64,000 nucleotides of DNA from an uncultured Pseudomonadales bacterium (GTDB lineage: Bacteria > Patescibacteriota > Microgenomatia > UBA1400 > PJMF01): assembly GCA_964455555.1 (NCBI GenBank), contig CAYVXV010000001.1, positions 149,096-213,095 of the forward strand. The letters are read 5' to 3'. Below, piece by piece: positions 11,211 through 35,469 of the stretch (within the stretch, counting starts at the first letter, position 1; each line of letters begins with the position of its first letter). The position numbers were made by a program, and so were the translations under genes. Under the pieces are notes generated by a model. It did no database searches. It was not told where the DNA came from and saw only the letters and a program-made list of their open reading frames with translations.

Positions 11211-13337
11211 TCAAGATTCAGGCGGTGTGTAATCCTGGATTGATTGTTGGCCGTGATATCTTACTCCCTCTCTTCCAAGCGGTTCTTGAGCCGCAGGCGC
11301 AGGGCTACCATTGGATTGGGGATTAGGATTTTCTGACTGGGCCGATGCTTGTTCAGGAGGGTTTTGCCCTGGTTCGCCGTCGCCTTCTGTCTGGTAGTAG
11401 GCTGGAGCCGGCCTGTTTTGTTCGGTCTCCAGTTTTTTTCTGGCTTCAATCTGCCGCCGCTTAAGTATTTCCTCTGGGTTGCTGGTGATAACCTGATGTT
11501 CTTCGTCGCTAGCCACCACTCTGAGGGCTACATGGTTTTGTCCGGCAAAGAAGATCCCTTCCCCAATATCGGAAGAAATTAGAAGTTGGCGCTCTCCCTG
11601 TGAGAGATAAAAGGTCTCTGACAAAACGGGGATTGAAGCGGTTGACTGCTTCATTAAAAATTGTATTGAAGCATTGGTGACAATAGCTTTGCCATAATCG
11701 TTGTGCAAAAAGTCCTCAACATCCTGAGTGATTGTGGTAATGCCTAAATAATATTTTCTTGAACGCTTAACCATTGAATGCAGGAACGAAGCTGAATCCT
11801 GATGCTTCATGAAATACCAGGCCTCATCAACCACGAGGATGCGTTTCTTGAGGTCTTTTTTAATTCTGGTCCAGATAAACTCTAGGATTATATACATAGC
11901 AATCGGTCGGAGTTCTTCCTCCATCTCCTTAACCGAAAAAACCGTAAGTTGGTTGCGGATATCCAGGTTGGAGGGTTGGTCAAAAATACCCCGGAATGAG
12001 CCGGTGATAAACTTCTCCAGCCTTGAAGCAATGTCGTCAGAGTCCTTGTTTTCCATGCCAATTAAAACCTTGTAAACATCTTCCATCAAGGGAGGTTCAT
12101 TGGTTTGGGTGGCTGGATCCGGAGTAATTCCCTTGGCTTTGTAGGCAGCTACCAAGGCGCGGTCAAGGATGGCGTCCTGCTGAGGCGTCATTTCCCCGAG
12201 CATAACTTTTAGCAAGCCATGAAGGGAAATGATTTTTTGGCCCAGCTCATTTTCACCTTCTTCATAGAGATTGGACAGGTCGAAAGGATTGATTTTGGTT
12301 TCGGAACCGAAAGTAAAGTTGATATATTCGCCTCCGGCCGCCTTGCAAAGCTCCTCATACTCTTGCTCTGGGTCAAGGACAATTACTTCTGTGTCAAACA
12401 TGAGCTGCCTGAGGATTTCCAGTTTTACAGTGTAGGATTTTCCTGCACCAGATTTGGCAAAGATAACCATATTGGCGTTTTCCATTTTGAAGCGGTCAAA
12501 AATAACCAGCGAGTCATTGTGTTCGTTGATGCCGTACACAATGCCGGTTTCCATGGTCAGCTCCGAAGAAGTAAAGGGAAAAGTTGTAGCCAGAGACGTG
12601 GTGTCCATGTTTCTGGTCACCATCAGTTTGTCGGTGCCCATAGGTAGGGTGGTTTTAAAACCTTCGTCCATCTGGAGGGTAGCTTTTTTGGAGACAATTA
12701 ATAGTGAACCCAAGGAAGACTGTATGGCCTTAGTCACCTTATCCAGCTGTTCCTTGCTGTCTGCTTGTATAGTTATATAAAGCCCGAATTGATAGAAGCG
12801 CTCTGATCCTTTAGCCAGTTCTTCCCGGATAAAGCGGGCGTCTTCAAGTTTAACTTCTGTATTGATGTTGCTAATCTTTCCCGACCTAAGGTCTGATTGG
12901 ATTTCCGCCTCCATCTCTGTGATTTTTCTTTTAAGATTGTCGAGAATTTCGGCTGAATCAACCGGAAAAATGTACATGGATACATTTATCTGATGGGGAA
13001 AGTTAATCAGCGGTGAAAGCCAGTTGGCCGGGACAGCCCTTGGGTATCCGGCCACAAAAAGCGTTCTTGTGTAGGTGGAATTGATTTTTTGAAAGGTGAA
13101 ATCAACCTCAATTGCTTCTGGGGCAATAATATCTTGAATAGTAACCAGGCCTCGGGAAAACGCTTTTAGCTTTTCTTGGTTGCGCTGATCTAAGTTCTGC
13201 TGAACATTATTTTCAGAAGAACCGCTTTCTTTTGGTTTATTGAGGAATGGTAGTCCTGCAAATAGATTGGGCATCTTGTTTTTTTTGACTAACCGCTGTC
13301 TGCCGCTATCATCATTACTCGGAACATTAACAATCAA
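11211..13337 (-). CDS. VirB4/TrbE/CagE-family type IV secretion ATPase (core; lacks the extreme N-terminal VirB4 motif)
   Basis: Walker A 'FAKSGAGKSYTVK'; VirB4 hallmark Walker B 'ILVVDEAWYFM'; N-terminal CagE_TrbE-like 'YTRTLFVAGYPRAVPANWLSPLI'; P/Q/N-rich C-terminal tail. Annotated start is TTG; an ATG (MPNLF) lies at 13274. Confidence 0.85.
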   Translation of the reverse strand: MIVNVPSNDDSGRQRLVKKNKMPNLFAGLPFLNKPKESGSSENNVQQNLDQRNQEKLKAFSRGLVTIQDIIAPEAIEVDFTFQKINSTYTRTLFVAGYPRAVPANWLSPLINFPHQINVSMYIFPVDSAEILDNLKRKITEMEAEIQSDLRSGKISNINTEVKLEDARFIREELAKGSERFYQFGLYITIQADSKEQLDKVTKAIQSSLGSLLIVSKKATLQMDEGFKTTLPMGTDKLMVTRNMDTTSLATTFPFTSSELTMETGIVYGINEHNDSLVIFDRFKMENANMVIFAKSGAGKSYTVKLEILRQLMFDTEVIVLDPEQEYEELCKAAGGEYINFTFGSETKINPFDLSNLYEEGENELGQKIISLHGLLKVMLGEMTPQQDAILDRALVAAYKAKGITPDPATQTNEPPLMEDVYKVLIGMENKDSDDIASRLEKFITGSFRGIFDQPSNLDIRNQLTVFSVKEMEEELRPIAMYIILEFIWTRIKKDLKKRILVVDEAWYFMKHQDSASFLHSMVKRSRKYYLGITTITQDVEDFLHNDYGKAIVTNASIQFLMKQSTASIPVLSETFYLSQGERQLLISSDIGEGIFFAGQNHVALRVVASDEEHQVITSNPEEILKRRQIEARKKLETEQNRPAPAYYQTEGDGEPGQNPPEQASAQSENPNPQSNGSPAPAAQEPLGREGVRYHGQQSIQDYTPPES

Positions 13338-13472: not shown

Positions 13473-14966
13473 TTATTGTTTGTCTGGCTCGGTTGGAGCA
13501 GCGTTGGGCGAAACATTTTGGTCAGGCGTCGTAGATGTTGCGGCCGCAGGGTTAGAGCCAAGTTCTCCCAGTGTCTTATTAATCTCATCTTGAGCTGCTG
13601 TAAGTTCGTCGTCTGCAGGAGGTGGACTGCCGGTTCCTTCTCCGGCTGGTTCTGGGCTTGCGGACGGAGCAGGCGGCACTTCCTGTTTTTGAACCTGTTG
13701 TTCTTGATTTGGCGTCAAGTTAACCTCGTTCGGCGCACCGGTTTGTGCAGCGGGCTGCCCGGAAGTTGGTTCTGTGGTTGCCTCAACCATTGGTGTGGGA
13801 GGGGCAGTGGGCATTGGAAGAGGAGCTTCTTCAGGAGCTGTGTCTGAAGAAGTTTCTCCCTCTGGCTTTTGGATGGTTTGAGACTCTACCGGTACCGGAG
13901 GGACAGCATCACCCTCACTAGGCATAGCTGGAGTTGGGGGAGGTGTAATTGGGTTTGGAGTGGAATCGCCCTGACCCCCATTTTCAACAACAACTTGTTC
14001 GAGTGTCATTGGAGTTGGCGCAGCACTGGCCTGCGGCTCGGTTGGAGTAACCTGGGCACCAGTGTCAGGTGCGGTGGTGTCAGCAATGGGGTTGGGTAGT
14101 TCGGTCGGAGCAGCTTGTTGTTCAGCTGGAGCCGGCTGCTGTGCTTGAGCCGGAGCAGGTTCGACTTGTGGCTGAGTAGGCGGCTGTGTTGGTTGCTCGA
14201 CTGGAGCCAATTGTTCTTCGGTTCCGGGCTGAGTGGCCTGCGTCTCATCCGGGTTGTTGGGTGTATTTTGCGGCATGGCAAATCCTTCAAAACTCGCTTT
14301 TACTAGTGGTGTTGTATAGCTGTTGCTGTCTGCAATTCCTTGCCCTTCCGCAGCTTCGGGATTGTAGCTTAAATAGAATAATTGAATAATTTCTTGAGTA
14401 GTGAGTTGATTTGAATAGAGGCCTATTCTGGCAAATTGAGAAATAATGTGATCCCGTTTGGGTTCCAGAATATTTTGAGCTTTTTCCAGCAAAACGCTTC
14501 TTTCTATTTGTGTTACATCAAATGTTTGCTGTCCCGGAAGCACGCTTTGAGCGGTTAATAAGCCTAGTTCGAGAGGGCCGGCGGGGATAACAACATAAAA
14601 CTTTTTATCAAGCACGTTGCGCTCGTGAATTAAGTTGCTTACAAATTCGCGGTAGCGGCCAATCCGGTGGCGTTTTTCTTGAGTAGAGGCCTGAGCCTCC
14701 TGCTCCTGAAGCCTTCTTAGATAACTGGTTACATCTTTTGTTTGAGAGCGGACCAACACCTGAATTGGATAATTGAGGGAATTCAACAAGCCGGCATAGG
14801 CGTAGATAATGCTGTCCTGTTCTTCCTCGGCTAGAAGGCCGAAGTTCATCGCGTCGACGGTTAGGATGAGTGATGTAGTGCCATCCTTCATAATCACTAA
14901 ATCATTAGTGATATCGTGAATATCAAGGTATTGTTGAGTGGTGGAAGAAATTGTTTGTTCTGCCAT
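13473..14966 (-). CDS. VirB4 N-terminal-domain-like protein with ~270-aa P/T/Q/A-rich disordered tail (putative detached N-terminus of VirB4)
   Basis: 'DLVIMKDGTTSLILTVDAMNFGLLAEEEQDSIIYAYAGLLNSLNYPIQVLVRSQ' mirrors the extreme N-terminal motif of VirB4/TraC ATPases (compare A. tumefaciens VirB4 'IVLLEDGSIMSIARIDGVAFELEEIE...IYAHLVRH', recalled from memory); no ATPase motifs; lies directly upstream of the ATPase ORF. Confidence 0.5.
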   Translation of the reverse strand: MAEQTISSTTQQYLDIHDITNDLVIMKDGTTSLILTVDAMNFGLLAEEEQDSIIYAYAGLLNSLNYPIQVLVRSQTKDVTSYLRRLQEQEAQASTQEKRHRIGRYREFVSNLIHERNVLDKKFYVVIPAGPLELGLLTAQSVLPGQQTFDVTQIERSVLLEKAQNILEPKRDHIISQFARIGLYSNQLTTQEIIQLFYLSYNPEAAEGQGIADSNSYTTPLVKASFEGFAMPQNTPNNPDETQATQPGTEEQLAPVEQPTQPPTQPQVEPAPAQAQQPAPAEQQAAPTELPNPIADTTAPDTGAQVTPTEPQASAAPTPMTLEQVVVENGGQGDSTPNPITPPPTPAMPSEGDAVPPVPVESQTIQKPEGETSSDTAPEEAPLPMPTAPPTPMVEATTEPTSGQPAAQTGAPNEVNLTPNQEQQVQKQEVPPAPSASPEPAGEGTGSPPPADDELTAAQDEINKTLGELGSNPAAATSTTPDQNVSPNAAPTEPDKQ

Positions 14967-15028: not shown

Positions 15029-16240
15029 TTAGGCACTCCTTATTTCGAGTGGGGCAACAGGCTCTCCTTTCAAAACTATGGTTTGTGGAGTAAAGCTGAA
15101 ACCATCCTTTTCGACATTTACCAAATATTCACCATTTTTTAGAGGGGTGGTAATGAAAAATTGGCCTAATGCATTTGTTTTAACAGCTCGAACAATTTGG
15201 CCTCCGAGTTGTATTTCTACAATAGCGTTGGTAATTAATTCGTTGTTTTGGGTTAATACCATTCCGACGAGCTTGTTGGCTTCTTCCGGAGGATCCGGGA
15301 AGGGCAGGTCTAAATTAAACGCTGCCTCTGTTGCATTTTGAGTTTCCTGTACTGGGACTGATGTGCTAGTCTCAACATAGGTGTGGCCGGAAGCATTTGT
15401 TTGAGTTTGTTCTGATTCAGCTGCGGCTGATTCCTCTATTATATTTGCTACCTGCTCAACTTCGGGAGGAGTGTTTTCGGGCACATCGACTAAGGTGGCA
15501 GCCTCTTCTGCGGTAAGATCAGCAGTTTTCTTAACCTCAAACTCTTCTTGTTGATTTATCGAAGTAGCCAGGTTTGGAGTCGAAATTTTTTTAATTGGCG
15601 CGTCATCAGCGATGCTGGTGGGAGCGTAAATAGTTACTTCTTCTCTGGTTTTAATAACTGGAGAAGTTTGGCTCCGCATGCTTCTAACTCTGACCTGAAG
15701 ATTTGGTTTGGCAGCAACTTTTTTCTGCGCGGCTGTGGGTGTGATTGGCTCCGGAGCAGCATCAAAGAAAGAAGAGATTTGCTGTATCCTACTAGCTTCC
15801 CAGTCAGTCAGGTCGCTCTGATATTCGGAAGGTGTATTTACCGAAGTGATGTATTCTTTAATCCTAGCTTTTTTTACCGGACTTAAGTCTAGTTCCGGTT
15901 CATATTGTGTCTGGTTAGCTGTGGGTTCGTATAAGAAAGGTTCCGGAATATTGGATGTTCTTTTCCAAAAAAACTTAGTTGGTTTGTAGAGTGTTCTGAA
16001 AAAAGTGATAATCCAGTGATCAAGTGGCCTTTCCTCAATCGGCAAGAAAGCCGCTCCGGCTCCCAGGCCTACGGAGAGCAGTATGAACGCCCACTTAATT
16101 GGTGTAGGCAGGTTGGTGCTGTAAAAAGCGACACCAACAACCACGCCAATGAATATTTCAGCAAACTGCTTGAGGGTCATGCTGCCAATAATATGAAAAC
16201 GGTAGTTGGTGATGTCTTGTGGGATTGGGTGTTCTCGCAT
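15029..16240 (-). CDS. VirB3/PrgI-like two-TM membrane protein fused to a C-terminal CarboxypepD_reg-like beta-sandwich domain
   Basis: N-terminal 'RFHIIGSMTLKQFAEIFIGVVVGVAFY...WAFILLSVGLGAGAAFLPIE' (two TM helices, GxxTxxQ-like motif) in the position typical for VirB3 just before VirB4; C-terminal 'AIVEIQLGGQIVRAVKTNALGQFFITTPLKNGEYLVNVEKDGF' is prealbumin-like; SD 'aggaaag' upstream. Confidence 0.45.
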   Translation of the reverse strand: MREHPIPQDITNYRFHIIGSMTLKQFAEIFIGVVVGVAFYSTNLPTPIKWAFILLSVGLGAGAAFLPIEERPLDHWIITFFRTLYKPTKFFWKRTSNIPEPFLYEPTANQTQYEPELDLSPVKKARIKEYITSVNTPSEYQSDLTDWEASRIQQISSFFDAAPEPITPTAAQKKVAAKPNLQVRVRSMRSQTSPVIKTREEVTIYAPTSIADDAPIKKISTPNLATSINQQEEFEVKKTADLTAEEAATLVDVPENTPPEVEQVANIIEESAAAESEQTQTNASGHTYVETSTSVPVQETQNATEAAFNLDLPFPDPPEEANKLVGMVLTQNNELITNAIVEIQLGGQIVRAVKTNALGQFFITTPLKNGEYLVNVEKDGFSFTPQTIVLKGEPVAPLEIRSA

Positions 16241-16328: not shown

Positions 16329-17369
16329 TTAAAAGCCTGAAGTAGTTTCAATTGCCGGAGTAATGAATGTTAAGAAAACATTATCGAATTCTGAGCCGGC
16401 GCTTTCTCCTTCCGCCTCAATCCGGAAATATGGGTAGTAAGCCTGGGTTCTAGGAGAGTAGCGGTATTCAAGCTCTAGATTATTGACAGTGATGGTTTTA
16501 AGGGAGGTAATCTCAAAGTTGGCTGCAAGGTTTCCCGCTTCAATTATTTCAGCACTGCCGCCGGCGATTTTTTCTCTGATCTTTGACAGCGGCAGAATGT
16601 TTTTGTCTGCTATTTTTGTAGCCATGGGCGGCGGCGGGTAAAACTCTGCTTTTTTAATTTCGTAGTTAAAGCCAACCTGGATTGTTGCAAGTGATTTTCT
16701 GGCAGCTGAGTAGTAGGCGGGATAATTATCAATTAAAAAAGTAAACGGGATTACAATCGTTTCAGCAGTGCCGGCCGACGCAGTCCTGGATTCCTGAGCC
16801 AGGAAGGTGATCTCTCTTCTTAGAGGCGAGAGTTCGGGATAACCGGGAATTTGTTTAATGAAGGCGCTGGCGGCATTAATTGCAGGCTCAATTACAATTT
16901 CCTGATTATCATCTGATATTTCGGGTATCGAAACCACATACATTAGTTTGTTCTCGTGCTCAAGGAAGCTGAGTGAGCGCTTGGTCTCATAATCGGTCCA
17001 CGTACTCACCTGATATGGAGATGTGTCCTGAGGCAGGCTTAAGCTTTCTGCAACTTGTTGGGCAAAATTTCTAGTAGATGAGTAGGAAGGAGTGCCGGTG
17101 TAAACACCGAGGGTTTTGGGAAAGTCAACTTCGTCTTGAGAAATATTCATAACTACCCGTACGTTTTCGGGCGGCTTAGTAATGCCCGAGCTGATTCCTT
17201 CAATTGTCACAGGCGTGCTTTCAGGAGGTTCTGGTGTAAGGATAAGTAATAGGGCTGAACCCACCAGCACAAACCCAAGAAGGATAATGAAGTAGCGCAA
17301 TGGGTTGGCTTTTATCTTTTCCGGAATACTCCGGATTGTTTGCAGTATTTGTTCTTTATTAATTGTCAT
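16329..17369 (-). CDS. N-terminally membrane-anchored extracytoplasmic protein (possible VirB8/TcpC-like T4SS component)
   Basis: Single N-terminal TM 'YFIILLGFVLVGSALLLIL' and ~300-aa ectodomain; only positional and topological support. Confidence 0.3.
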   Translation of the reverse strand: MTINKEQILQTIRSIPEKIKANPLRYFIILLGFVLVGSALLLILTPEPPESTPVTIEGISSGITKPPENVRVVMNISQDEVDFPKTLGVYTGTPSYSSTRNFAQQVAESLSLPQDTSPYQVSTWTDYETKRSLSFLEHENKLMYVVSIPEISDDNQEIVIEPAINAASAFIKQIPGYPELSPLRREITFLAQESRTASAGTAETIVIPFTFLIDNYPAYYSAARKSLATIQVGFNYEIKKAEFYPPPPMATKIADKNILPLSKIREKIAGGSAEIIEAGNLAANFEITSLKTITVNNLELEYRYSPRTQAYYPYFRIEAEGESAGSEFDNVFLTFITPAIETTSGF

Positions 17370-17403: not shown

Positions 17404-20400
17404 TTAATTGCTTGTACCAACTGTTTGAATGAATGCGTTTTTTAAACCTATGTTAACCGGCATGGGCCTGCCTCCGGGCATTGAGAGCGAGTTTGAACAG
17501 AAAGAAGCAGAGCCTCCGGAGTCAAGGAAAATAAATTGGTCGGCACCGCATTGCTGCATAATATCTGCCAAGTCAGAATAGTTGCCCGTTCTGATTGAGG
17601 CAAAAATAATTGCTTCTCCAGTGAAATCGGTGCACTCGCCATTTGCGTTGCCATAACCCAAGGCAACCCTGTTTCTCTCTCCACCTCCGTCCGGATGATC
17701 ACTGAGTACACCGGTAACAGCTTTTTGATAGCCTCCCACTACAAAAGGCATGTCGGTGCGGTTGTACCAGGCAGAAGGGACGGGGTCAATCCGGAAGTTT
17801 CCACTGTTGTCTACAGTGAACATTCTCATAGTTTGTTCCATGTAAGCAGGATCCCGACCGTTGGCATTGGCAAAATACACCGGGGGGTTGGCTCCGCCTA
17901 TACCAATCGGCTGAGTGGGGGTGTTGTAGTAATTGGCATTAATGGCAACATCTAGCTCTGGGTTGTTTCTAAACCAGTCGCAGGTGTATTTTGGAGAGCT
18001 GGCTTCAGCACTATTACTGACAACAAAGTTGTCAGCGGTTTTTGGCCCAATGGCTACATACCCGGATACGCCGGCATCATCGTCATCCTGAGCAGCCGCA
18101 CAATCACGCGAATTAACGCTCATGCCATAAATTGCGCTTTCATCTGCGCGGATGGCGCTTTTTTCAGCTGCCGTAAGCGGCAGGATGTCCAAGACATCTA
18201 TGCCGACTGTTTCAAAGTGAAGGTGGTTTCCAGAAGAGTTTCCTGTGCTGTCAACCCTGCCCAGAAGTTCTCCAGCTTGAACTTGAAGATCGCGGGTAAT
18301 ATTGGACATACTGATTCCTGGTGCAAAGTCGAGTAAGTGGGCAAAAATCATGATATAGCTGCCGGTATCAACAATGACGTGGGTGCCGTACTTATATTGG
18401 CCGTCACTGCTCCTCATTCCTGTGCCATCTGGATAGAACGAGGCAGTTCCGGCATATGGTGTAAATACTGGTGCATTGGCACCACCATCTGAAGCAGAGT
18501 TGTCCCAGGTAGTAATATCAATGGCAACACCGTCTCCAGGGTAAGAGCCATAGCCGCCCCGTATTACAGCATGAGGGCCACCGCAACCCGCGCAAAGCGT
18601 GGGGTCATAATTTTGGTAAGCCCTAATCACCCCAGTGGTTGGCCAGCAGCCTTCAAAATTTGAAAGTGTCCGGTCAAAAGTGCTGCTCTTATATGAAGCC
18701 GGCAGCGGGCCTAAGAAAGCAGCAAAAATAATAAGCAGGGTTATCAGCGAAATTAAAATTGAACCGGCTATGGTACCTGCAGCTGCTGCGGTACCAACAG
18801 GAAGTGTGGACAGATAACTGGCGGCTGTTCCCGCTACATTGTAACTGCCGCCTGCGGTTGCTGTGCCTGTGGCGCCGGTGGTAGCGCCGGCTGTTTGGGC
18901 GCTTGGCGGCAGGGAACTGGATCCTAAGGCAGGATATGAAGAAGTGCCGGTTGAGCCGCCAAATGACGGCAAGCTGAAGCCCCCGCCTCCTATTGCCGCA
19001 CCGGCGTTGGCGCCGACTGCGGCTCCAAGGCCAGCTCCGACAACTGCTCCTACAGGTCCTCCAATCAAGAAGCCAGCAATGCCACCGCCAATGCCTCCAA
19101 CCAGCCCGCCAATAAGGCCGCTTATTCCGGCTGTAAACATTTTTATCAGGCCTTGAACTACAAAAGCTCCGCCCACAGCCAAAGCTCCAAGAATCCACTT
19201 GCGCTTTTTCTTGTCTGCCAGAAGAGCTGCTGCTTTACCCCACGGGCCTGCCGCTGCCAGGGCTTTGGTTGCCAACTTATCACCGCCGGCTTTTTTCAGG
19301 GCACTTAGCGCTTTTCCTCTAGCATCAACCTTTTTGCTGAAGCGGTCAGTGAAGCGGCTTCTGGCCGAGGCGAATCTGCCTCTTATACCCCCCGGCGGCG
19401 GTCTTTGTGCGCCTGGAATGCCGGCTGGAACACCTGCCACATCATCGGCTGAATAAGTTCTATCACCACCCGCCCCGACGGGCGCACCTCCGTGGGATTC
19501 TGAAACAGCGGCCTCATTAGCTTGGATTAGCTCCATTAAGCTTGCTTGGTGGAGAGCCGCTAGGCTTTCATACTCCAATTGCTCGAGAATGCGCTCTCTT
19601 TCCTCTAAGGATGTTTGGGCAATAAATGACTCAACATAGAAGCGGCGCAGATTTTCTATATAGATTGCTTCTTGATGAGCTGTTTCCAGTTGAAAAAGCC
19701 TTTCCTGGTCGATTTCTGCCTGAAGCTGAATGGCTTCCTGTGCACGCATTTGCAGTTCTGCAAAATTGAGCAGATGGATGTTGGTCGGCACCATGTTGCG
19801 GTCGGTAATTTTATCCAAATCGTGGCCCAGGTATTCATAAATGAGTGTTTTTTCATCAGGTGAAAGGGCATTCCATGCAATCAAGTGGCGCTTATGCTGG
19901 TCTTTCACACTATTGGTGACTGCCCTTGCCACGCGTTCTGCACCATGCTCCTGAACAGATGAGCTGGCGCTGCTCAGTGAGGGGAGGAGCCGGCGTTCAA
20001 AAATTTGGTGATTGCCGGCTGCCAGCTCATCAGCTTCTTTGCCGCTCAGGGGCGCCAAACCTGCTGACAGGCTGGTTTTTTCCGCTTCTAAAGCCAGTTC
20101 AACAGCAAAAAGTTGAGCGTATTTAATGAGGAGTTTTCTCAAGCGCCTGATGGCATCTTCGGTTAAGCGGTATTCCTCCGGTATACCCAGCATTAAGAGC
20201 AGGTGCTCATCGCTCATGTGTTGTAGAAGCCAGGCTGCAGTGTGAGGGTGGGTGGCAAGGCTTTGAAGCGAAGCTTGGCTTGAAACATCAATGTTCACAA
20301 ACTCAAACTCAGCCCCTTGGTTAATTAATAGGGACTTTAGGGCAACCTGGATTCGGCCTTCTACTTGAGTGAATTCCCTGGTGCCCAGGCCGACAATGGT

Positions 20401-21540
20401 GGGGCTGTCAGATTTAAGGACATCTTTAAGCTCTTGGCGGAAATTGTAGCCGGTGGTAAAGCCTGAAAGTTCTTCAAGGGCAATGGTATGGTTTTTAAGC
20501 GAATCAACCAATTGAGTAGCGTGCTGAGCAAAAGCCTCGCGCTCTTCTTCTGGCAGACTGAGAGTGTAGTCTTTGTAAAAGTTCTCGAGCGCCGCCACAA
20601 ACTGGGGTGAGCGGGAAATTTTTAGGTAAAGCTCATCGAGGATTTCCAACCGGCGGCGTGGATTAGCAAAAAGCAGGCCAATTTCCGCCTTATCCTTGCT
20701 GAGCATGATTTCCATGACTTCATTGAGCAGCAGATTTTTAAGCTCGGGGTTTGCCTCCAGATAAGCATAACTAATGTCCTTGGAGACAAAAAGCTCGTGC
20801 AAAGCCCGGTTGTAAATCCATGTTGCTTCATACTGCATTTTTTCCAGATCATCTCTGGTGGCAGTAGGTTCGACCTCTTCTTCCTGAGGGGGTAGTTGGT
20901 CAGCCCCTCCGGTCTCCGGTTCCTCTGGAGTTGTTGGAGCGGCTGAAACACCAGTGGGCGCTGGTGGTTCGTTAATTTGTTCATCTAGCTCATCAACCTC
21001 ATCTTCGAGTAGGTCCTGATTGATTTCCTCGGCAGCCTCTGAAAACTCCACTATTGTTGCCCGGGCTACAGCTTGCAGTAGTTTAAGAATTTTATCTCTA
21101 TGGCTATGAGCAATAGTTTCTGATACTAATTTTTCATCATCCCGAGAACCCGCGATTTCTATCAGTAATCGCTTCTGCAGGTCGGAAGACCTGAGAAAAC
21201 TATAAGCATTCAGGCTGGCCTGAGTTTCAGCCGTACCCCTGTGTAACAAAATAGCGGCAGCATCAGAGAGCAGCAGAATAGCGTCGGTATAAAATAGGTA
21301 ATTTTTGCGGTCCTTAGGATCAATTAGGGCTTTATCAGCATCAAATAGTGAAGAGGTGTGAACCTTAAAACTGGGTAGTTGGACCGGTTGCTGATCGAGT
21401 AGTTCGCCGTTAGGTTTAAAGGCGCGGCTGAGGTCAATAACTAAATCACGGACCTTTTCAAGTTTTTCGCTTGGGTCAATAAACTTCACTTGCTGAAGCT
21501 CAGTCAAAGGGACTGATTGATTTTGCTCGTCAGGCGCCAT
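17404..21540 (-). CDS. giant membrane protein: cytoplasmic alpha-helical/coiled-coil N-terminal half, glycine-zipper membrane segment, extracellular M23 (LytM) peptidase domain plus phosphodiester-glycosidase (NAGPA/DUF2233)-like domain
   Basis: M23 signature 'GTHVIVDTGSY...GNSSGNHLHFETVGIDV' (HxxxD and HLHFE); C-terminal 'FIFLDSGGSASF' NAGPA-like motif; Gly-rich 'GGLVGGIGGGIAGFLIGGPVGAVVGAGLGAAVGANAG'. The ORF track starts at TTG 21618; ATG (MAPDEQ) at 21540 is preceded by a 'tataat'. Confidence 0.7.
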   Translation of the reverse strand: MAPDEQNQSVPLTELQQVKFIDPSEKLEKVRDLVIDLSRAFKPNGELLDQQPVQLPSFKVHTSSLFDADKALIDPKDRKNYLFYTDAILLLSDAAAILLHRGTAETQASLNAYSFLRSSDLQKRLLIEIAGSRDDEKLVSETIAHSHRDKILKLLQAVARATIVEFSEAAEEINQDLLEDEVDELDEQINEPPAPTGVSAAPTTPEEPETGGADQLPPQEEEVEPTATRDDLEKMQYEATWIYNRALHELFVSKDISYAYLEANPELKNLLLNEVMEIMLSKDKAEIGLLFANPRRRLEILDELYLKISRSPQFVAALENFYKDYTLSLPEEEREAFAQHATQLVDSLKNHTIALEELSGFTTGYNFRQELKDVLKSDSPTIVGLGTREFTQVEGRIQVALKSLLINQGAEFEFVNIDVSSQASLQSLATHPHTAAWLLQHMSDEHLLLMLGIPEEYRLTEDAIRRLRKLLIKYAQLFAVELALEAEKTSLSAGLAPLSGKEADELAAGNHQIFERRLLPSLSSASSSVQEHGAERVARAVTNSVKDQHKRHLIAWNALSPDEKTLIYEYLGHDLDKITDRNMVPTNIHLLNFAELQMRAQEAIQLQAEIDQERLFQLETAHQEAIYIENLRRFYVESFIAQTSLEERERILEQLEYESLAALHQASLMELIQANEAAVSESHGGAPVGAGGDRTYSADDVAGVPAGIPGAQRPPPGGIRGRFASARSRFTDRFSKKVDARGKALSALKKAGGDKLATKALAAAGPWGKAAALLADKKKRKWILGALAVGGAFVVQGLIKMFTAGISGLIGGLVGGIGGGIAGFLIGGPVGAVVGAGLGAAVGANAGAAIGGGGFSLPSFGGSTGTSSYPALGSSSLPPSAQTAGATTGATGTATAGGSYNVAGTAASYLSTLPVGTAAAAGTIAGSILISLITLLIIFAAFLGPLPASYKSSTFDRTLSNFEGCWPTTGVIRAYQNYDPTLCAGCGGPHAVIRGGYGSYPGDGVAIDITTWDNSASDGGANAPVFTPYAGTASFYPDGTGMRSSDGQYKYGTHVIVDTGSYIMIFAHLLDFAPGISMSNITRDLQVQAGELLGRVDSTGNSSGNHLHFETVGIDVLDILPLTAAEKSAIRADESAIYGMSVNSRDCAAAQDDDDAGVSGYVAIGPKTADNFVVSNSAEASSPKYTCDWFRNNPELDVAINANYYNTPTQPIGIGGANPPVYFANANGRDPAYMEQTMRMFTVDNSGNFRIDPVPSAWYNRTDMPFVVGGYQKAVTGVLSDHPDGGGERNRVALGYGNANGECTDFTGEAIIFASIRTGNYSDLADIMQQCGADQFIFLDSGGSASFCSNSLSMPGGRPMPVNIGLKNAFIQTVGTSN

Positions 21541-21719
21541 GCTTTGATTATAGCGCAGGGTGTGTAGAGAATGGGAGGGTGAAGCGGGTATGTAAACCGC
21601 TGCTTTTCCTTTTTTCAACGTGTATGAAATAATAGAGCTATATTTACCTGCGGAAGGTTTTAAGTGTTAGTAGTTGATGCCAGATGTAATCATCAGGCGT
21701 TTTTGATATAATTCAGACA

Positions 21720-27525: not shown

Positions 27526-30500
27526 CTAGGGCACCAGGCCGCAGTAAGAGGCTGCAGACCAGGCGTTCCAGTTGCCCCATCTCGTTCTGATTTCAATCAT
27601 TTTTTCAATATTCTTTAATGGGTCGAGCATGGCTGTTTCGCAGGAGTTGAGCAAAGCTTGGTCAGCAACTTGGCATGGTAGGTTCCAGGCGTTATAACCT
27701 GGTGTTCCGCTCACTCGGCCGCTGGCATCAGCAAGCGCCCCCGGACAATGTGCCATAAGGTTAATCTGGAAAAGGCCAATACTGTAGTCAACCGACTGGC
27801 TTGTTAGGCAGCGCTTGTTGACGGCGTCGCTGCCGCCACGGCTTTCTTTATTGCAGATGCGTGAGGCAATCTCAGCTTCTGCTTGAGGGTTGGAGAATCC
27901 AGCTTGCTCAAAGAAGGGAAGTAGTGTTTCAACACTGCAGGGCCCGGTCGGAATAATGTTGCAGCTGCCGTCTCCTGCGCCGGCACCGCTGCCACTGATT
28001 GAGCCAACTACTTCATTAGTGATTCCGCCGGCACATTTTCCAAGCAGGAACTCCTCAGTAGTCGAGCAGGAACTTAGATAGGCATGAGCTTGGCCGTAAT
28101 ATGTGTTGAGGCCCCGCTGCACGTTCCTGAGCCAATATCCCAGGCTTGCGCCCAGAAAACTGATCCCGCCTCTGCCTTCTTCTGTTGTGCCAATCCTGAA
28201 GTTTTTGGAGCAGTCATATTCCACCACCTCAATGGGCGGGTCGAGCGGAACCGGCTCGCCGCCGATAATTTCATAGTATTTTAGGTATCGGTTTTCTTCG
28301 CAGTTACCGCTAGTCGGGTCTTCCTGATAAGTATGGCTGGCACTGCCGCCGCCAAAATTTGCCTGGAAACCACTGCCGTCAAAGCGGTTTTTAGTGTCTC
28401 TCTCTTCTAGCTTGGCAACCTGCTGTTGGTTGAAGAAGGTGTGTTTCATCACTTCAGTCACTGATTCAAGTTCATAGCCAACCGGGTACACCAGGAAAAA
28501 GTCTACTTTAGCGGTTTGGCCGGCCGCGTTGCTCCATTTGCCCCTGACGACATCAAAGATAGTCTTAAGAGGGTTGTTTACAGTAGTTGCTCTTTGCGGG
28601 TTTTGGTTTCCTAAGAAAATATAATTAAAAACATCGGTACCAAAACCGTATCCCTCCCTATACACCCTTGATGAATCATCTGTGCTTGGGGGAATTATGT
28701 TGGCTGCTTCAAATATTTCCCTAACCGGTTCGCTTCCAAGGTTGTCACAACTGGGGGTGTTGCCATTTATCAAGTCTACAACTGACTTGCCCAGGACATC
28801 CTTGCAGGCTGCAGCACCATTCAAGCCGGCTAATTCTGCCGGGGTATTGCCGTCGCCTGCTAGACAATAAATTGTGCTCCCTGATCCTTGGGTTGAAGCT
28901 CCGGTGGCCTGTTGGCCGATAATAGTCCTCCTGTCCCTGGACTGCTTGTCAAAACCCGGGTTTTCCTCGTCTTCAGAAAGCTTGAATTTTTGCGGAACCA
29001 GAATATTTCTGGTCTGGCTGACTGCGTCAGTGAAGAAAAAATGGCCACTTTCTTCTCCGCCGCCTTTGTTCGTCAGTATATCAGGGATTTTAAAGGCAAC
29101 AATCAAAACTTCATGCTTTGGTTGGGCAGACTGGGAAAAAGAGAAGAAGCTAAAAGCATCGGCAACTGATCTTTGTTCGATTGAGGCAACCATAAAAGCC
29201 AGCCGATAGGAGCGGTTGATGTAGAGAGGAGTGTTTAAAATGCCTTTTTTCAGCTTGTCGTATTGAGGGGACGTATTGCCAAAAAGCCGCTGGCAGCCGG
29301 CCGTTTCTCCGCCGCTGTAGTAATCCGGCATGAAGTCGCTGATGTCATCAAGCAAAGTGTCAACAATATAGTCCGTATTGGGGATTGCCTCAGCTCTGGG
29401 AGCGCATCTGTCCCACGCTCCAAGCCGCTCACACATTTTTTGGGTGTTGGTTAGGATGCGAACAGACTGGATGCAGCGTTGTTCTGCTGCCATGAGCGAA
29501 TTAATTGGCGCAGTATTTACTTCCTGCTCAGGATAGCTTGAGGCATAGTAGTCCTCGAAGCCAAAATACTCTTCAAGGGATGAGGTCAGAAACCTTCTGC
29601 CCTCTGTATCCCGGAAGATAGGCACCCTGCCGCTTGAGGAATCAATGGTGTAATTTGATTCTGTTTCCAGCCGGATTCCCTCATAAAGCTCTAAAAAGCG
29701 GTTTATCAGGCCTTCTGTTTCAATATTAAGTTTGATGTTGGTGGGCTCGGCAGCGCAGTGGGCTTCATATCCTTGAGCTGCTAAATCCCCCCTGGTGGTG
29801 CTTACGCTTTGCTGGTCCGGCCGGCTTAGCGGATGAATGCCCCTGATGGGGTGGAGCAGATAGTATGCCGGGTCCACTAAATATTCAGGATACTTGCTCA
29901 GGTCATAGCCGAACACTCCTGATCCGCCGGCTGATAGGGCGCTGCCTCCTGGGGGCGCCTCGCCGATATAGAAAGGTTTGCCCAACTCCTGACTTTGAGA
30001 TAATGCCAGCATGGCGCTTTGTTTTTCTGATTCAGTGTAATAGTGAGCAGAGGTTACTGTAATAGCACCGATGCTGTTTGTATTTTTAAAATCTCCGGGC
30101 CCAGTGCTGTCGCAGCGGGTGGTGTCTTGACTAGCCATCTGGCCATAGCCGACATTTGAAGTTACGCCCCTTAGTTGGCTGCCGATCACTTGCCCCCAGG
30201 TTTTGTAGGCCGGCATAGCTGCAGCATTGCCTCCGCAGTGCGGTTCATTGGCCAGCTCGTAGCCCCAAAGAGCCGGATGAGACCCCAGCGCCCTGACCTG
30301 GCTGACTAAAGCTTGGTACTCTCCCTGATAACCGCTTTCATACCATTCTATTCCTGCTCCCTGAGGTATACCGCCGCCGCCATTGCTGTAATCACCGATG
30401 GCGATGATCATTTTTACACCAGCTTGCTGGGCTGCATTGAGAGCATTTTGAACACCGGCCGCTCCCTCAATCTTGGCAAAAGCTCGGACAACAGAGACAC

Positions 30501-30879
30501 CGCAGGTGTTTTTTAGCCAGGAAAGATGTTCTGCAGCTGTGCCGTCAGCGAACTCAGCGGCTCCAATATTATTAATGTTGACACCCACAAACCTGTCGGG
30601 ATATTGCTCGGCTTTTTCTCTGAGAGCTAAACAAATATCAATATTTGTATCTCTGTACCAGGAGAACTGATCTACCGCGATCTGACGGCCGTTTTGGTCA
30701 CCGCCATATTGCCAAACAAGGTATCCAGATGCTCCGGCTTGAAAAAAATCTTCAATTTCTTGGGAAAGGATGGCGGCATTGCTTTCTTGAGCGTTGGCTT
30801 TGGAAAGGTTTGCTGTTATCCCTGCCAGAAGAAAAATTGTTGCCGCTAGTGCCAGTAGTTTAAACGGGAGTATGCGCAC
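27526..30879 (-). CDS. giant secreted protein: N-terminal GH5-like (cellulase/mannanase superfamily) domain and C-terminal lytic transglycosylase (SLT, VirB1-like) domain
   Basis: Signal peptide 'MRILPFKLLALAATIFLLAGITANLSKANA'; GH5 catalytic-acid motif 'WGYELANEPH'; C-terminal SLT pattern 'CNKESRGGSDAVN...SIGLFQINLMAH...Y'. Confidence 0.7.
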   Translation of the reverse strand: MRILPFKLLALAATIFLLAGITANLSKANAQESNAAILSQEIEDFFQAGASGYLVWQYGGDQNGRQIAVDQFSWYRDTNIDICLALREKAEQYPDRFVGVNINNIGAAEFADGTAAEHLSWLKNTCGVSVVRAFAKIEGAAGVQNALNAAQQAGVKMIIAIGDYSNGGGGIPQGAGIEWYESGYQGEYQALVSQVRALGSHPALWGYELANEPHCGGNAAAMPAYKTWGQVIGSQLRGVTSNVGYGQMASQDTTRCDSTGPGDFKNTNSIGAITVTSAHYYTESEKQSAMLALSQSQELGKPFYIGEAPPGGSALSAGGSGVFGYDLSKYPEYLVDPAYYLLHPIRGIHPLSRPDQQSVSTTRGDLAAQGYEAHCAAEPTNIKLNIETEGLINRFLELYEGIRLETESNYTIDSSSGRVPIFRDTEGRRFLTSSLEEYFGFEDYYASSYPEQEVNTAPINSLMAAEQRCIQSVRILTNTQKMCERLGAWDRCAPRAEAIPNTDYIVDTLLDDISDFMPDYYSGGETAGCQRLFGNTSPQYDKLKKGILNTPLYINRSYRLAFMVASIEQRSVADAFSFFSFSQSAQPKHEVLIVAFKIPDILTNKGGGEESGHFFFTDAVSQTRNILVPQKFKLSEDEENPGFDKQSRDRRTIIGQQATGASTQGSGSTIYCLAGDGNTPAELAGLNGAAACKDVLGKSVVDLINGNTPSCDNLGSEPVREIFEAANIIPPSTDDSSRVYREGYGFGTDVFNYIFLGNQNPQRATTVNNPLKTIFDVVRGKWSNAAGQTAKVDFFLVYPVGYELESVTEVMKHTFFNQQQVAKLEERDTKNRFDGSGFQANFGGGSASHTYQEDPTSGNCEENRYLKYYEIIGGEPVPLDPPIEVVEYDCSKNFRIGTTEEGRGGISFLGASLGYWLRNVQRGLNTYYGQAHAYLSSCSTTEEFLLGKCAGGITNEVVGSISGSGAGAGDGSCNIIPTGPCSVETLLPFFEQAGFSNPQAEAEIASRICNKESRGGSDAVNKRCLTSQSVDYSIGLFQINLMAHCPGALADASGRVSGTPGYNAWNLPCQVADQALLNSCETAMLDPLKNIEKMIEIRTRWGNWNAWSAASYCGLVP

Positions 30880-30931: not shown

Positions 30932-31363
30932 CTAATATTGAAAATCAGAAGTGGGAATGCCGAATTGGGTAATAATGCTGACGCCGGTAAACTGAGAAAT
31001 TAGATTTAGGATAATAAAGGCGCTTAGAGATACAACCAAACCGATTACCGCATAGGTCATCATGCCTTTGGCACTTTGCACTTGTTGGGTGCTGCCACCT
31101 CCGGAAAGCATGTAGCGGAAGGCTCCGACAATAAACATCACAAAGCCCGCCAGCCCGATAACGGTAATGATTACCGTGAACACATTGGCAATCAGGCACT
31201 CCAATCCTTGGAGGGTGGCTACATCGCCACTGCCGTATTCTGTATCAGCTACGCAGACACCAGACCAAGATGAAGTTTGGGCAGAAACAGGTGCTGCGCC
31301 GGCGAAGGCCCCAACCAGAACAATTAAAAATAAGATTGCAGAGTGTTTAAGGCTTTTTAGCAT
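30932..31363 (-). CDS. T4SS pilin-like (VirB2/TrbC-type) paralogue P1
   Basis: Signal peptide (MLKSLKHSAILFLIVLVGAFAGAAPVSAQ), then C-terminal two-helix module 'VIGLAGFVMFIVGAFRYMLSGGGSTQQVQSAKGMMTYAVIGLVVSLSAFIIL'. Start trimmed from 31447 to the internal ATG to remove overlap with P2. Confidence 0.6.
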   Translation of the reverse strand: MLKSLKHSAILFLIVLVGAFAGAAPVSAQTSSWSGVCVADTEYGSGDVATLQGLECLIANVFTVIITVIGLAGFVMFIVGAFRYMLSGGGSTQQVQSAKGMMTYAVIGLVVSLSAFIILNLISQFTGVSIITQFGIPTSDFQY

Positions 31364-31391
31364 TAATTTAGTATAACAATTTGCGGCAGGA

Positions 31392-31967
31392 TTAGCGATT
31401 ATTAATGTTGGAGCTATTGATAAGCTCTTCCAACGAAGAATAGCCAAGGAAGTTGAGGATGATAATTAGAATAGCATAGCTGGCTGCCAAGATGATTATT
31501 CCCACAACGGCAGCTACGATGGTGCTTTGAGCAGCCTGAGTTTTGCCTTTGTCACCTCCTGAAGTTATCCATCTGAAGGCACCCAAGATTAAGTAGAAAA
31601 AGACGAGTAGGGCGGCAATTACAAAAACGAATTGCAGCAGGCTGTTAAAGAGTTCACTAAAGCTGCGGAAAAAACCTTCCGGCAGGTTGATGTCTACCCG
31701 CTGAGGTGAAACAGGAGCCTCTTCCTCTACAACAATTACTCTGTCGCCCGAATCCGTGACTACCCGAGTGCCGTCCTCCAGAATAATTACTTCTGAATCA
31801 GTCAGTGTAGCTTCATCAATTTCGGTGCTCAAATATAAAACACCGTCTTGGCCGCGGACCAAACGAACTTCGCCATCAGTGGAATCGGCGGATACAGCCT
31901 GGGAAAAGTTGAACGCCATGAAGGAAAATACAATTATTATTAGGATGCGGGATAATAGTTTAATCAT
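31392..31967 (-). CDS. T4SS pilin-like paralogue P2
   Basis: Signal peptide 'MIKLLSRILIIIVFSFMAFNFSQAVSA'; module 'FVFVIAALLVFFYLILGAFRWITSGGDKGKTQAAQSTIVAAVVGIIILAASYAIL...NFLGY'. Confidence 0.65.
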   Translation of the reverse strand: MIKLLSRILIIIVFSFMAFNFSQAVSADSTDGEVRLVRGQDGVLYLSTEIDEATLTDSEVIILEDGTRVVTDSGDRVIVVEEEAPVSPQRVDINLPEGFFRSFSELFNSLLQFVFVIAALLVFFYLILGAFRWITSGGDKGKTQAAQSTIVAAVVGIIILAASYAILIIILNFLGYSSLEELINSSNINNR

Positions 31968-32007
31968 CTATAACAACTATTATAGCGCAAAATCAGGCAA
32001 AAGTCAC

Positions 32008-32040
32008 TAAAAAAGCCCTCGATAAGAGGGCTTTTTTATT
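32008..32040. terminator. bidirectional intrinsic terminator inside the pilin array (between P2 and P3)
   Basis: aaaaaa-gccctc-gataa-gagggc-tttttt at 32009-32037; A-run and T-run on either side. Confidence 0.6.
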
Positions 32041-32059
32041 ATTCAAATGATTTCCCGGT

Positions 32060-32452
32060 TTAAACGCTTTGCAGTAAGCCTTCGAGGCCCTGTTCATAGC
32101 CGAGGAAGTTAAGGACGATCTGTAGAATAGCCCAAGCTGCTGCTAGGACGATGATGCCGACTACAGCGTTGGTGATCATGTTTCTGGCGTTTTCTGTTTT
32201 GCCTTTGTCACCTCCTGAGGTAATCCAAGTGATGGCACCTAGGATCAAGTAGAAGAAGACGAGTAGGGCTGCGATTACAAAAACAAAATTTAGGATGCCA
32301 TTGATTAGGTCACCGATGTTGCCGAAGAAACCGGTTGGAACATCAATGTCGATGTCTCCCTGGGACTGGGCAAATGCGGGTGTAATTGTTGCAACCATTG
32401 CCGAAGCGGTCACGGAAGCGTAGGCGGCATATTGTTTGAGGGATTTTATCAT
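32060..32452 (-). CDS. T4SS pilin-like paralogue P3
   Basis: Signal peptide ending 'TPAFAQS'; module 'FVFVIAALLVFFYLILGAITWITSGGDKGKTENARNMITNAVVGIIVLAAAWAIL...NFLGY', about 85% nt identity to P2 over the module. Confidence 0.65.
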   Translation of the reverse strand: MIKSLKQYAAYASVTASAMVATITPAFAQSQGDIDIDVPTGFFGNIGDLINGILNFVFVIAALLVFFYLILGAITWITSGGDKGKTENARNMITNAVVGIIVLAAAWAILQIVLNFLGYEQGLEGLLQSV

Positions 32453-32608
32453 ATACTCCTTTTCCTAAATTTTTAGATACACATAGCTAAAAAATTATAC
32501 TCATACTTCGAGTGTTGCGTCAAGTTTCGAAAATATCTTATAGTTAACATTATAACTTGGTCAAAATAGGCCGTCAAGTTGCTTGGCCTGGATGTTCTAA
32601 ATTACCAG

Positions 32609-33082: not shown

Positions 33083-33086
33083 TAGC

Positions 33087-33515: not shown

Positions 33516-33520
33516 GGGCT

Positions 33521-33898: not shown

Positions 33899-33968
33899 AG
33901 CCTAAGTATTTTAACCTTTTTTTAATTACTACTCTAGTAGTGTGTCATTTATACCGGGCAAACTCCGT

Positions 33969-34502: not shown

Positions 34503-34516
34503 GTTTTTGTTTCTTT

Positions 34517-35023: not shown

Positions 35024-35025
35024 TT

Positions 35026-35397: not shown

Positions 35398-35469
35398 CTC
35401 AAGTAATATCTTACAGCAACCCGGTGAAAAATGCCAACAATGGGCTTGTTAAGGTATACTATCACTGTT

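Follow-up and report, generated by a model that had tools for sequence, protein, structure and literature searches.

What is a membrane protein of 1,378 amino acids (aa), with two predicted wall-active enzymatic domains at its C-terminus, doing at the head of a type IV secretion system (T4SS) operon? The question is raised by a 64,000-nucleotide (nt) stretch of contig CAYVXV010000001.1 (GenBank assembly GCA_964455555.1, positions 149,096 to 213,095 of the forward strand; hereafter, the window), which represents the chromosomal origin region of a genome of Patescibacteria (candidate phyla radiation, CPR). When GTDB species representatives were scanned with two peptide patterns, the sole match was "Patescibacteria group bacterium UBA1370", and one partial relative carries the NCBI name Patescibacteria. 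We favor, with a probability of roughly 0.6, the interpretation that the giant protein resides in the T4SS as a subunit, links a pair of outward-facing wall enzymes with the cytoplasmic base of the secretion apparatus, and clears the wall together with a secreted lysozyme-like protein. It would thus be a Patescibacteria-specific subunit of a chromosomal, monoderm-type T4SS and fulfill the function of a membrane-anchored wall hydrolase of the VirB1-like type.

Under this interpretation, the N-terminal domain would stay in the cytoplasm and dock the protein to the VirB3/TrsD/VirB4 base, and the C-terminal enzymes would face outward. The M23 metallopeptidase domain would cut peptide cross-links, and the second domain, resembling the phosphodiester glycosidase NAGPA, would cleave N-acetylglucosamine (GlcNAc)-1-phosphodiester bonds of wall-attached polymers; jointly with the secreted SLT_3 lysozyme-like protein encoded nearby, they would produce a local gap for the channel and the VirB2-like pilus, in the wall of either the own cell or the host. 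The giant protein comprises the following parts (window coordinates):

17404..21540, minus strand: giant-protein coding sequence, 1,378 aa plus stop; start shared with homolog P0002
20848..21540, minus strand: aa 1-231, poorly conserved, ending in an acidic proline-rich low-complexity stretch (alignment A1, sequence)
19495..20847, minus strand: aa 232-682, conserved domain, all-helical except for one small beta-hairpin (AlphaFold2, AF2; conserved in relatives)
19204..19494, minus strand: aa 683-779, Gly/Pro/Arg/Lys-rich basic segment, 19 K/R versus 7 D/E, directly before the first hydrophobic helix (low predicted local distance difference test score, pLDDT)
18988..19203, minus strand: aa 780-851, helix H1 (780-803) and glycine zipper (807-827 and 829-851, broken at Gly-Pro) (hydropathy, AF2, family alignment)
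18808..18987, minus strand: aa 852-911, uncharged Gly/Ser/Thr/Ala/Pro-rich linker (hydropathy, sequence)
18700..18807, minus strand: aa 912-947, strongest transmembrane (TM) segment, ending in the family-conserved AFLxPxP (Kyte-Doolittle 2.68; family alignment)
18121..18660, minus strand: aa 961-1140, M23 metallopeptidase domain (Pfam, PDB profile matches, Foldseek, invariant residues)
17416..18072, minus strand: aa 1157-1375, NAGPA/DUF2233-like phosphodiester glycosidase domain, containing five invariant Cys (Pfam, Foldseek)
17509..17523, minus strand: D1340-S-G-G-S1344, counterpart of the NAGPA catalytic DGGGS loop (alignments A3 and A5; Slr0280)

The gene and the T4SS operon

The minus-strand open reading frame (ORF) 17404-21618 is free of interruptions, and its homologs align over the full length at 47-48% identity (E=0), so the gene is real, as the original prediction had it. 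The length of 1,400 aa given there was counted from TTG 21618, which is merely the first possible start. Translation from ATG 21540 yields MAPDEQ..., and because homolog P0002 also opens with MAPD (MAPDDP... in alignment A1), this codon is the most likely start, with the protein shortened to 1,378 aa; the public gene call, P0001, uses GTG 21489, 17 codons inside ATG 21540, for a product of 1,361 aa. A perfect TATAAT is located on the minus strand (21541-21552), 6 nt upstream of ATG 21540, and no Shine-Dalgarno-like sequence lies between the two, so the first gene of the operon may be translated from a leaderless or near-leaderless mRNA. This TATAAT was not listed by a consensus promoter scan because it lacks a good -35 element; the promoter and terminator scan of the 10.9-21.8 kb interval detected fewer sites than in shuffled controls and is neutral with respect to the operon organization.

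The genes downstream of the giant gene lie on the same strand, separated by gaps of 34-158 nt, and Pfam and NCBIfam searches confirm the operon order that had been read from the sequence, namely, giant protein, bitopic protein, PrgI/VirB3-like protein, a protein similar to TrsD and to the N-terminal part of VirB4, and VirB4:

16329..17369, minus strand: 346-aa bitopic protein, TM segment at aa 22-48; the next gene, syntenic in all related loci
15029..16240, minus strand: PrgI/VirB3-like protein fused to a CarboxypepD_reg beta-sandwich (Pfam PrgI 6.9e-7, CarboxypepD_reg 3.9e-7)
13473..14966, minus strand: TrsD/TraC-like protein resembling the N-terminal part of VirB4 (NCBIfam TrsD 1.4e-4, VirB4_plasma 1.6e-6)
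11211..13337, minus strand: VirB4 ATPase of the CD1110 (monoderm) family (NCBIfam 1.9e-114; Pfam)

The virB4 gene is followed by dnaA, dnaN, rnpA, and yidC. Searches of Pfam, PHROG, and PDB sequences with the 346-aa bitopic protein yielded no meaningful match; it is possibly an analog of VirB8. The TrsD/TraC-like gene is matched by PF26593 in the orthologous loci. In the PrgI/VirB3-like protein, the beta-sandwich occupies the C-terminal aa 324-390, and the same fusion is present in loci L002, L003, L006, and L009; PrgI of plasmid pCF10, encoded by a gene of only 354 nt, lacks it. Patescibacteria T4SS are related to the monoderm MPF-FATA systems, include pilin arrays, lack a relaxase, and are often located near dnaA (PMC12102498), and the cluster in the window displays such features: a monoderm-type VirB4, PrgI, a TrsD-like protein, a pilin array, chromosomal location, and dnaA next to it. 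Within the part of the supplements of that study covered here, NAGPA or M23 Pfam families near virB4 are not mentioned.

A family with exchangeable hydrolase cassettes

An exhaustive profile search over 1.84 billion cluster representatives identified 22 representatives at E<=1e-30 and 71 at E<=1e-10. Among the matches listed, the top ones are mostly 1,000-1,800 aa long, with a few fragments among them, and many possess the same helical N-terminal domain and membrane region as the giant protein. The C-terminal enzymatic module varies among the family members. The M23+NAGPA combination is represented in approximately 14 clusters, and M23 alone is found in P0013, P0026, P0027, P0033, and many others. 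A CHAP domain was matched in 4 of the 24 family members scanned; as the module, it was identified by Pfam in P0025, and the same C-terminal sequence was recognized by eye in P0028, P0031, and P0035. M23 and CHAP are combined in P0039 and P0055, and in P0032, the NAGPA domain is preceded by an HExxH-like segment (seen by eye) in place of M23. Such an interchangeable cassette suits adaptation to different wall chemistries.

The same gene order is observed in five other loci that encode distant relatives (L002, L003, L006 with the CHAP variant, L009, and L010): in the loci that are long enough, a protein of 230-350 aa comes after the family member, and then PrgI (in some cases fused to CarboxypepD_reg), a TraC-like protein, and VirB4, frequently adjoined by dnaA. 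The link to the T4SS that was originally drawn from the position of the gene at the head of the VirB3/VirB4 operon is thus reinforced by recurrent synteny, and the family is a conserved component of the Patescibacteria T4SS in which the hydrolase module is exchangeable. This synteny also bears on the idea that the giant protein is a general wall-remodeling or division hydrolase that only happens to be adjacent to the T4SS near the replication origin. M23 proteins often act in division, and the cluster adjoins dnaA and dnaN, among housekeeping genes, but the gene order is constant across loci whose giant proteins differ widely, one of them carrying the CHAP cassette, and the same-strand intergenic gaps are short; we regard an incidental association as very improbable.

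The M23 peptidase domain

The M23 domain call holds up. Peptidase_M23 (PF01551) matches aa 1043-1111 at 34.2-36.4 bits, above the gathering score of 28.7, and matches all 14 relatives whose regions after the last TM segment, sharing 32-58% identity, were aligned (alignment A3), with the best E-value of 1.8e-20; the GNSSGNHLHFE segment that drew attention to this domain is found as described. The A3 profile retrieved M23 enzymes from the PDB with E-values down to 2.1e-14, including Csd1/Csd2 (deposited as TagE), Csd3, ShyA, LytM, zoocin, and lysostaphin. The residues that are invariant in A3 are C965-W-P-T-x-G970, H990, D1008, H1068, H1106-x-H1108, and E1110. In the alignments with solved M23 enzymes, A-I-D1008-I corresponds to G-I-D-I, F-A-H1068-L to Y-A-H-L, and H1106-L-H1108 to H-L-H; specifically, H1068 and H1106-L-H1108 align with AHL and HLH of Csd1/Csd2, Csd3, and StM23. 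A Foldseek search with the C-terminal AF2 model (aa 957-1378, mean pLDDT 86) matched Csd1/Csd2, LytM, lysostaphin, DipM, and ShyA at E-values from 4e-5 to 1e-3 and a probability of about 1.0.

The original prediction called the M23 motif unambiguous. This description holds for HxH but not for the literal HxxxD, which is absent: a Gly occupies the position four residues before Asp1008, and the invariant H990 is found 18 residues upstream instead. The refuting condition stated there for the motif residues is thereby triggered in part. The displacement is a property of the family. Each of the 72 M23-bearing members carries a His upstream of the Asp, only 3 of them in the canonical position, with a spacing of mostly 7-18 residues; 69 of these members retain HxH, and 70 retain the middle His. 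Degenerate LytM domains usually lose catalytic-type residues, and the pattern of conservation in the giant-protein family is unlike theirs; we read the M23 domain, from its sequence, as probably active, with the first His displaced.

Displacement of this kind has a possible parallel in M23A enzymes such as LasA, where a long loop separates the first zinc-ligand His23 from Asp36; we take this as a lead only. In M23A peptidases (LasA, beta-lytic protease), as presumably in the giant protein, the first His and the Asp are set apart by such a loop rather than arranged as HxxxD, and the M23A structure 3it5 gives a weak profile match (E 0.0033). Unlike these enzymes, the giant protein shows its best sequence and fold matches to M23B-type peptidases (Csd1/Csd2, Csd3, ShyA, LytM), and the N-terminal CWPxxG signature is specific to its family.

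The unusual motif also lends itself to a different explanation, in which the M23 domain is degenerate, similarly to those of EnvC and NlpD and the LytM domain of PrgK, so that the giant protein would be a scaffold or regulator that binds peptidoglycan or controls another hydrolase while playing a structural role in the channel. The missing HxxxD, with Gly four positions before the Asp, and the large size and several membrane helices, as in a structural subunit, are compatible with this scenario, and in PrgK, LytM and CHAP are reported to be regulatory (PMC12857230). A scaffold is nevertheless unlikely, given that H990, D1008, H1068, H1106, and H1108 are all invariant at the level of divergence represented in A3, that the upstream His, HxH, and the middle His persist in the family-wide counts given above, and that the DGGGS-type motif of the second domain is retained as well.

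The NAGPA-like domain

In the window protein, PF09992 matches aa ~1197-1364 at 19.1-20.7 bits (E 5e-4 to 1.6e-3), spanning profile positions 4-166 of 169; 10 of the 14 relatives are matched at E<=0.01, the best E-value being 1.3e-8. The top Foldseek matches in the PDB are structures of vertebrate NAGPA (6pku, 6pki, and 6u11; E 6.6e-7 to 5e-6, probability 1.00), followed by NAGPA 6pky (up to 2.4e-5) and the bacterial DUF2233 protein 3ohg (2.6e-5), with the TM-score on target reaching 0.54; M23 structures rank after these at about 1e-4. In the DSGGS motif, D, the second G, and S are invariant in alignments A3 and A5, and DGGGS is found in many relatives. In Slr0280 (5h3k), LDGGSS is the sequence aligned with this motif, and when a profile was built from this domain only, AINAnF(Y)N and LDgGgS lined up with the respective motifs of Slr0280, which is also a top fold match. 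In NAGPA, the DGGGS loop is crucial to recognition of the substrate and to catalysis and is conserved in the aligned vertebrate and selected bacterial homologs (PMC13474241). The matches in the relatives, the NAGPA fold, and the correspondence of DSGGS to this loop jointly bear out the earlier assignment of an NAGPA/DUF2233-like domain with an LDSGGS motif.

The giant protein thus shares with NAGPA (the mannose-6-phosphate uncovering enzyme) and with DUF2233 proteins the fold and the AINAxF(F/Y)N and LDGGGS-type motifs, along with a match to PF09992 that stays below the gathering score in the window protein itself. It differs from these in the low identity (13-16%), in the fusion of the domain behind M23 on a T4SS membrane protein, and in having DSGGS where NAGPA has DGGGS; its substrate cannot be a lysosomal-enzyme glycan. 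We found no report in the literature of an NAGPA-like domain in a T4SS hydrolase. Among large extracellular proteins of spore-forming Bacillota, TelC is combined with NAGPA, in some cases along with NlpC/P60, and these proteins are predicted to be conflict toxins (bioRxiv 10.1101/2025.01.14.632903). The common theme is the combination of NAGPA with a peptidoglycan peptidase in a multidomain protein directed at the envelope; the Bacillota proteins contain ligand-binding domains and a peptidase of a different family, and lack the T4SS context and the large N-terminal domain.

The pairing of the two domains invites the speculation that they form a two-step tool for breaching a Gram-positive-type wall, possibly that of the host on which the epibiont feeds, in which the NAGPA-like domain would cut GlcNAc-1-phosphate linkage units, which tie teichoic-acid or arabinogalactan-type polymers to N-acetylmuramic acid (MurNAc), and M23 would then cut the exposed cross-bridges. 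We consider this specific version doubtful, although worth keeping in view.

Membrane region and orientation of the enzymes

A hydrophobic, Gly-rich block (aa 780-851) precedes the enzymes, in agreement with the glycine-zipper membrane segment anticipated from the sequence, and in the relatives, this region shows weak matches to Gly-zipper_Omp and C19orf12. The number of membrane crossings determines on which side the enzymes lie. AF2 models the membrane region at low confidence, and the number of hydrophobic blocks differs between relatives; three spans, for example, with the glycine zipper as a single kinked helix, would place the enzymes outside.

Several indirect lines of evidence point outward. 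In more than 60 long family members, Cys is rare before the CWP motif (55 in 68,135 residues, 0.08 per 100 aa) and common after it (271 in 14,646 residues, 1.85 per 100 aa); as a control from the same window, the signal-peptide-bearing SLT_3 protein contains 2.15% Cys, and VirB4, the TrsD-like protein, and DnaA contain 0-0.4%. Six Cys are invariant in the C-terminal region, one of which belongs to the CWPxxG at the start of the M23 domain; disulfide formation is one possibility for them, and a role of the CWPxxG Cys as a metal ligand or a latency switch is another. The basic segment at aa 683-779 reads as a positive-inside signal, and beyond the last TM segment, the flank is neutral or acidic in most relatives (family alignment); K/R counts differ too little between the linker and the flank that follows the last TM segment to settle the topology. 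Finally, an outward orientation is favored because every identified type of cassette is a wall-active or extracellular enzyme. From the partition of Cys, the charges of the flanks, and the identity of the cassettes, we infer that the C-terminal enzymes face outward.

Two further features are located where the membrane region gives way to the enzymes. The motif sAFLxPxP (aa 941-947, window 18700-18720) directly precedes the hydrolase region; no known cleavage motif was recognized in it, and it could be either a processing site for the release of the enzymes or a helix cap. In P0033, P0037, P0042, and others (e.g., L009 10001-13843), an extra domain of ~150 aa is inserted between the last TM segment and CWP-M23; by eye, it looks like a beta-sandwich and fits an extracellular stalk.

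The N-terminal domain

Upstream of the membrane region, the sequence is mostly helical, as proposed originally, although this part spans about 780 aa rather than ~850. AF2 predicts aa 225-682 as helical with pLDDT of 70-92. Searches of Pfam, NCBIfam, and PHROG returned no family for the first ~780 residues, and a PDB sequence search with the N-terminal domain produced no meaningful match. A Foldseek search of the PDB with the AF2 model of aa 225-960 detected nothing significant (best E 0.32); alpha-pore-forming toxins, considered as a fold identity for this region, were rejected on this result, and tape measure proteins were rejected likewise, with the best match in the viral library BFVD at E 0.07 and a probability of 0.14. 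The basic flank before H1 and the lack of a signal peptide at the N-terminus lead us to place the N-terminal part in the cytoplasm. Docking of this domain to the VirB4/TrsD/VirB3 base is a guess based on the gene position and synteny.

The long, helical, nearly Cys-free N-terminal part, along with the Gly-rich hydrophobic helices, the C-terminal M23, and the absence of a signal peptide, is also reminiscent of phage tape-measure or ejection proteins, and one could imagine that the T4SS extrudes the whole giant protein or its C-terminal half, so that the helices enter the target membrane and the hydrolases digest the host wall. Indeed, the best PHROG match is a tape measure protein (7.6e-11), the PDB profile matches over the M23 region include phage Gp16 (9m7n) and the internal (pre-ejectosome) protein of cyanophage A4, and the number of hydrophobic blocks varies among relatives. 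These matches, however, are confined to the peptidase: the PHROG ones are limited to aa 1021-1112 and the phage ones in the PDB to M23, whereas the N-terminal 780 aa have no PHROG match, and the viral fold search with aa 225-960 gave nothing significant. Both the fixed location of the gene as the first of a structural operon and the basic stretch preceding H1 are consistent with a protein that resides in the membrane, and no secretion signal was identified. Penetration by export of the giant protein therefore strikes us as quite unlikely.

Comparison with known T4SS wall hydrolases

All VirB1 homologs of Gram-positive bacteria are membrane-anchored, with extracellular enzymatic domains, and PrgK of pCF10 combines a domain inside the cell, a membrane anchor, and three domains outside, namely, LytM, muramidase, and CHAP (PMC12857230). 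The layout of PrgK is a precedent for the coupling of a cytoplasmic domain to several wall-active domains, which the original prediction considered unusual; of the contrast it drew with the smaller T4SS hydrolases, what remains in comparison with PrgK is only how large the N-terminal domain of the giant protein is, the presence of an NAGPA module, and an M23 domain that appears to be active. The comparison with PrgK proposed there revealed no sequence similarity (BLASTP E 0.22; hhalign probability 0.3), and homology was rejected. PrgK, a VirB1-like protein of the DELTA class that is grouped here with TraG of pIP501 and Orf14 of Tn916, shares with the giant protein the monoderm T4SS cluster, the adjoining VirB3 and VirB4 homologs, an N-terminal part on the inside (by prediction in the giant protein), the membrane anchor, and several wall-active domains, among them an M23/LytM-type domain. 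Unlike PrgK, the giant protein begins with ~780 aa that include a conserved orphan fold and is anchored by a glycine zipper with several helices, is encoded by the first gene of its operon (the PrgK gene comes after virB4), retains the M23 catalytic-type residues, and carries the NAGPA-like domain; in the Patescibacteria system, the lysozyme-like domain belongs to a separate, secreted protein, and no SLT, muramidase, or CHAP was matched by Pfam in the giant protein. A tblastn search against plasmids returned only generic M23 segments, and therefore, no relative is apparent on known conjugative plasmids. By analogy, the giant protein would work like the VirB1-like hydrolases (PrgK, TraG, Orf14), although we do not file it as a member of that group.

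A closer counterpart might exist within Patescibacteria. The T4SS of Southlakia epibionticum is essential for epibiotic growth (PMC10633639), and a peptidase and a lysozyme homolog from the T4SS cluster are both essential and possible substitutes for VirB1 (PMC12102498). In this cluster (SEML1_0006-0019), SEML1_0007, 1,113 aa long, ends in a domain of the DD-peptidase fold, and SEML1_0006 contains two lysozyme-like domains and a cysteine-proteinase-fold domain; both are essential by transposon sequencing (Tn-seq) (PMC10633639). The two systems have in common the chromosomal location of the T4SS, the pilin array, PrgI, a TrsD-like protein, VirB4, a very large protein with a peptidoglycan peptidase, and a separate lysozyme-like protein. 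They differ in that SEML1_0007 has a Hedgehog/DD-peptidase fold rather than M23, has no NAGPA domain listed, and is encoded by a gene that follows virB4 instead of opening the operon. In AFDB, the second-best neighbor of SEML1_0007 is annotated as an "M23 domain-containing protein". We regard SEML1_0007 as the probable counterpart of the giant protein, equipped with a different cassette; the AFDB neighbor gives only a hint of N-terminal homology.

Several observations weigh against a resident subunit with two active, outward-facing enzymes. AF2 and hydropathy suggest four helices (780-803, 807-827, 829-851, and 915-941), and with four full membrane spans, the enzymes would be cytoplasmic. The PF09992 score of the window protein itself is below the gathering score of 25, and human NAGPA removes terminal GlcNAc, whereas the GlcNAc in wall linkage units is substituted. 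The canonical HxxxD is missing, so that the catalytic competence of M23 is deduced from conservation only, and the N-terminal domain matches no known fold, which leaves the docking role a guess. To these can be added the lack of homology with PrgK noted above and the report that the LytM domain of PrgK is regulatory rather than catalytic, with its CHAP domain likewise regulatory (PMC12857230).

Genes surrounding the operon

On the upstream side, the giant gene is flanked by a divergent gene for a 951-aa protein, and the following features were identified in this part of the window and beyond yidC:

21720-24575, plus strand: 951-aa soluble protein, divergent; no Pfam or PHROG match; conserved in related loci
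26509-27468, plus strand: 319-aa soluble protein, divergent; no match in the Pfam scan, the only one run; conserved in related loci
27526..30879, minus strand: 1,117-aa second wall enzyme with a signal peptide and 24 Cys; C-terminal SLT_3 lysozyme-like domain (1.7e-6)
30932..35397, minus strand: eight tandem, divergent VirB2-like T4SS pilin paralogs (Pfam T4SS_pilin)
35431-36012, plus strand: ECF-type (extracytoplasmic function) sigma factor gene, divergent, after the pilin array
2353-5469, minus strand: protein of 1,038 aa carrying a DUF4012 domain (9.9e-27), located directly past yidC, khpB, and the RNase H gene

A 586-aa polytopic membrane protein is encoded upstream of the giant gene as well and is a candidate for VirB6 on topology alone; the 951-aa, 319-aa, and 346-aa proteins are candidates for unrecognized T4SS parts, for example, an analog of VirB8. 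The 1,117-aa SLT_3 protein, which additionally shows a weak match to GH5 cellulase (aa 141-287, E 0.002), is the second wall or polysaccharide enzyme of the cluster, a secreted one, and is kept in related loci. Within the pilin array, the maximal ORFs 30932-31447 and 31392-31967 share 56 nt, and therefore, the true start of 30932-31447 is probably located further downstream. No relaxase was found in the Pfam scan of the ORFs at 1-37 kb of the window, and an Rfam scan of the window detected no RNA.

Implications for the Patescibacteria T4SS

The Patescibacteria T4SS is the only T4SS that is reported to be essential for its bearer to grow, and most of its components lack annotation. The existence of the cluster and of an essential peptidase within it (Southlakia) has already been published; new here are the NAGPA module, an M23 signature that departs from the canonical one, and a conserved orphan N-terminal domain combined with cassettes that can be exchanged. 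The general view of wall handling by monoderm T4SS stays the same. One conserved, large subunit of the system is now defined as a family that consists of an orphan N-terminal domain, a glycine-zipper anchor, and an exchangeable wall-hydrolase cassette, and an NAGPA-type glycosidase joins the set of T4SS-linked wall enzymes. The M23 signature, CWPxxG...H-x6-18-D, is one that standard motif checks would misread as inactive. If the two-step breaching scheme holds, the cassettes (M23, M23+NAGPA, CHAP, and M23+CHAP) would track the chemistry of the host wall, and the giant protein would contain the first bacterial enzyme of the NAGPA family with a defined wall substrate and be the first T4SS hydrolase to act on wall-polymer linkages. 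More immediately, the family offers specific targets to mutate in Saccharibacteria that can be cultivated and suggests a possible way toward the first physiological substrate of bacterial DUF2233 enzymes.

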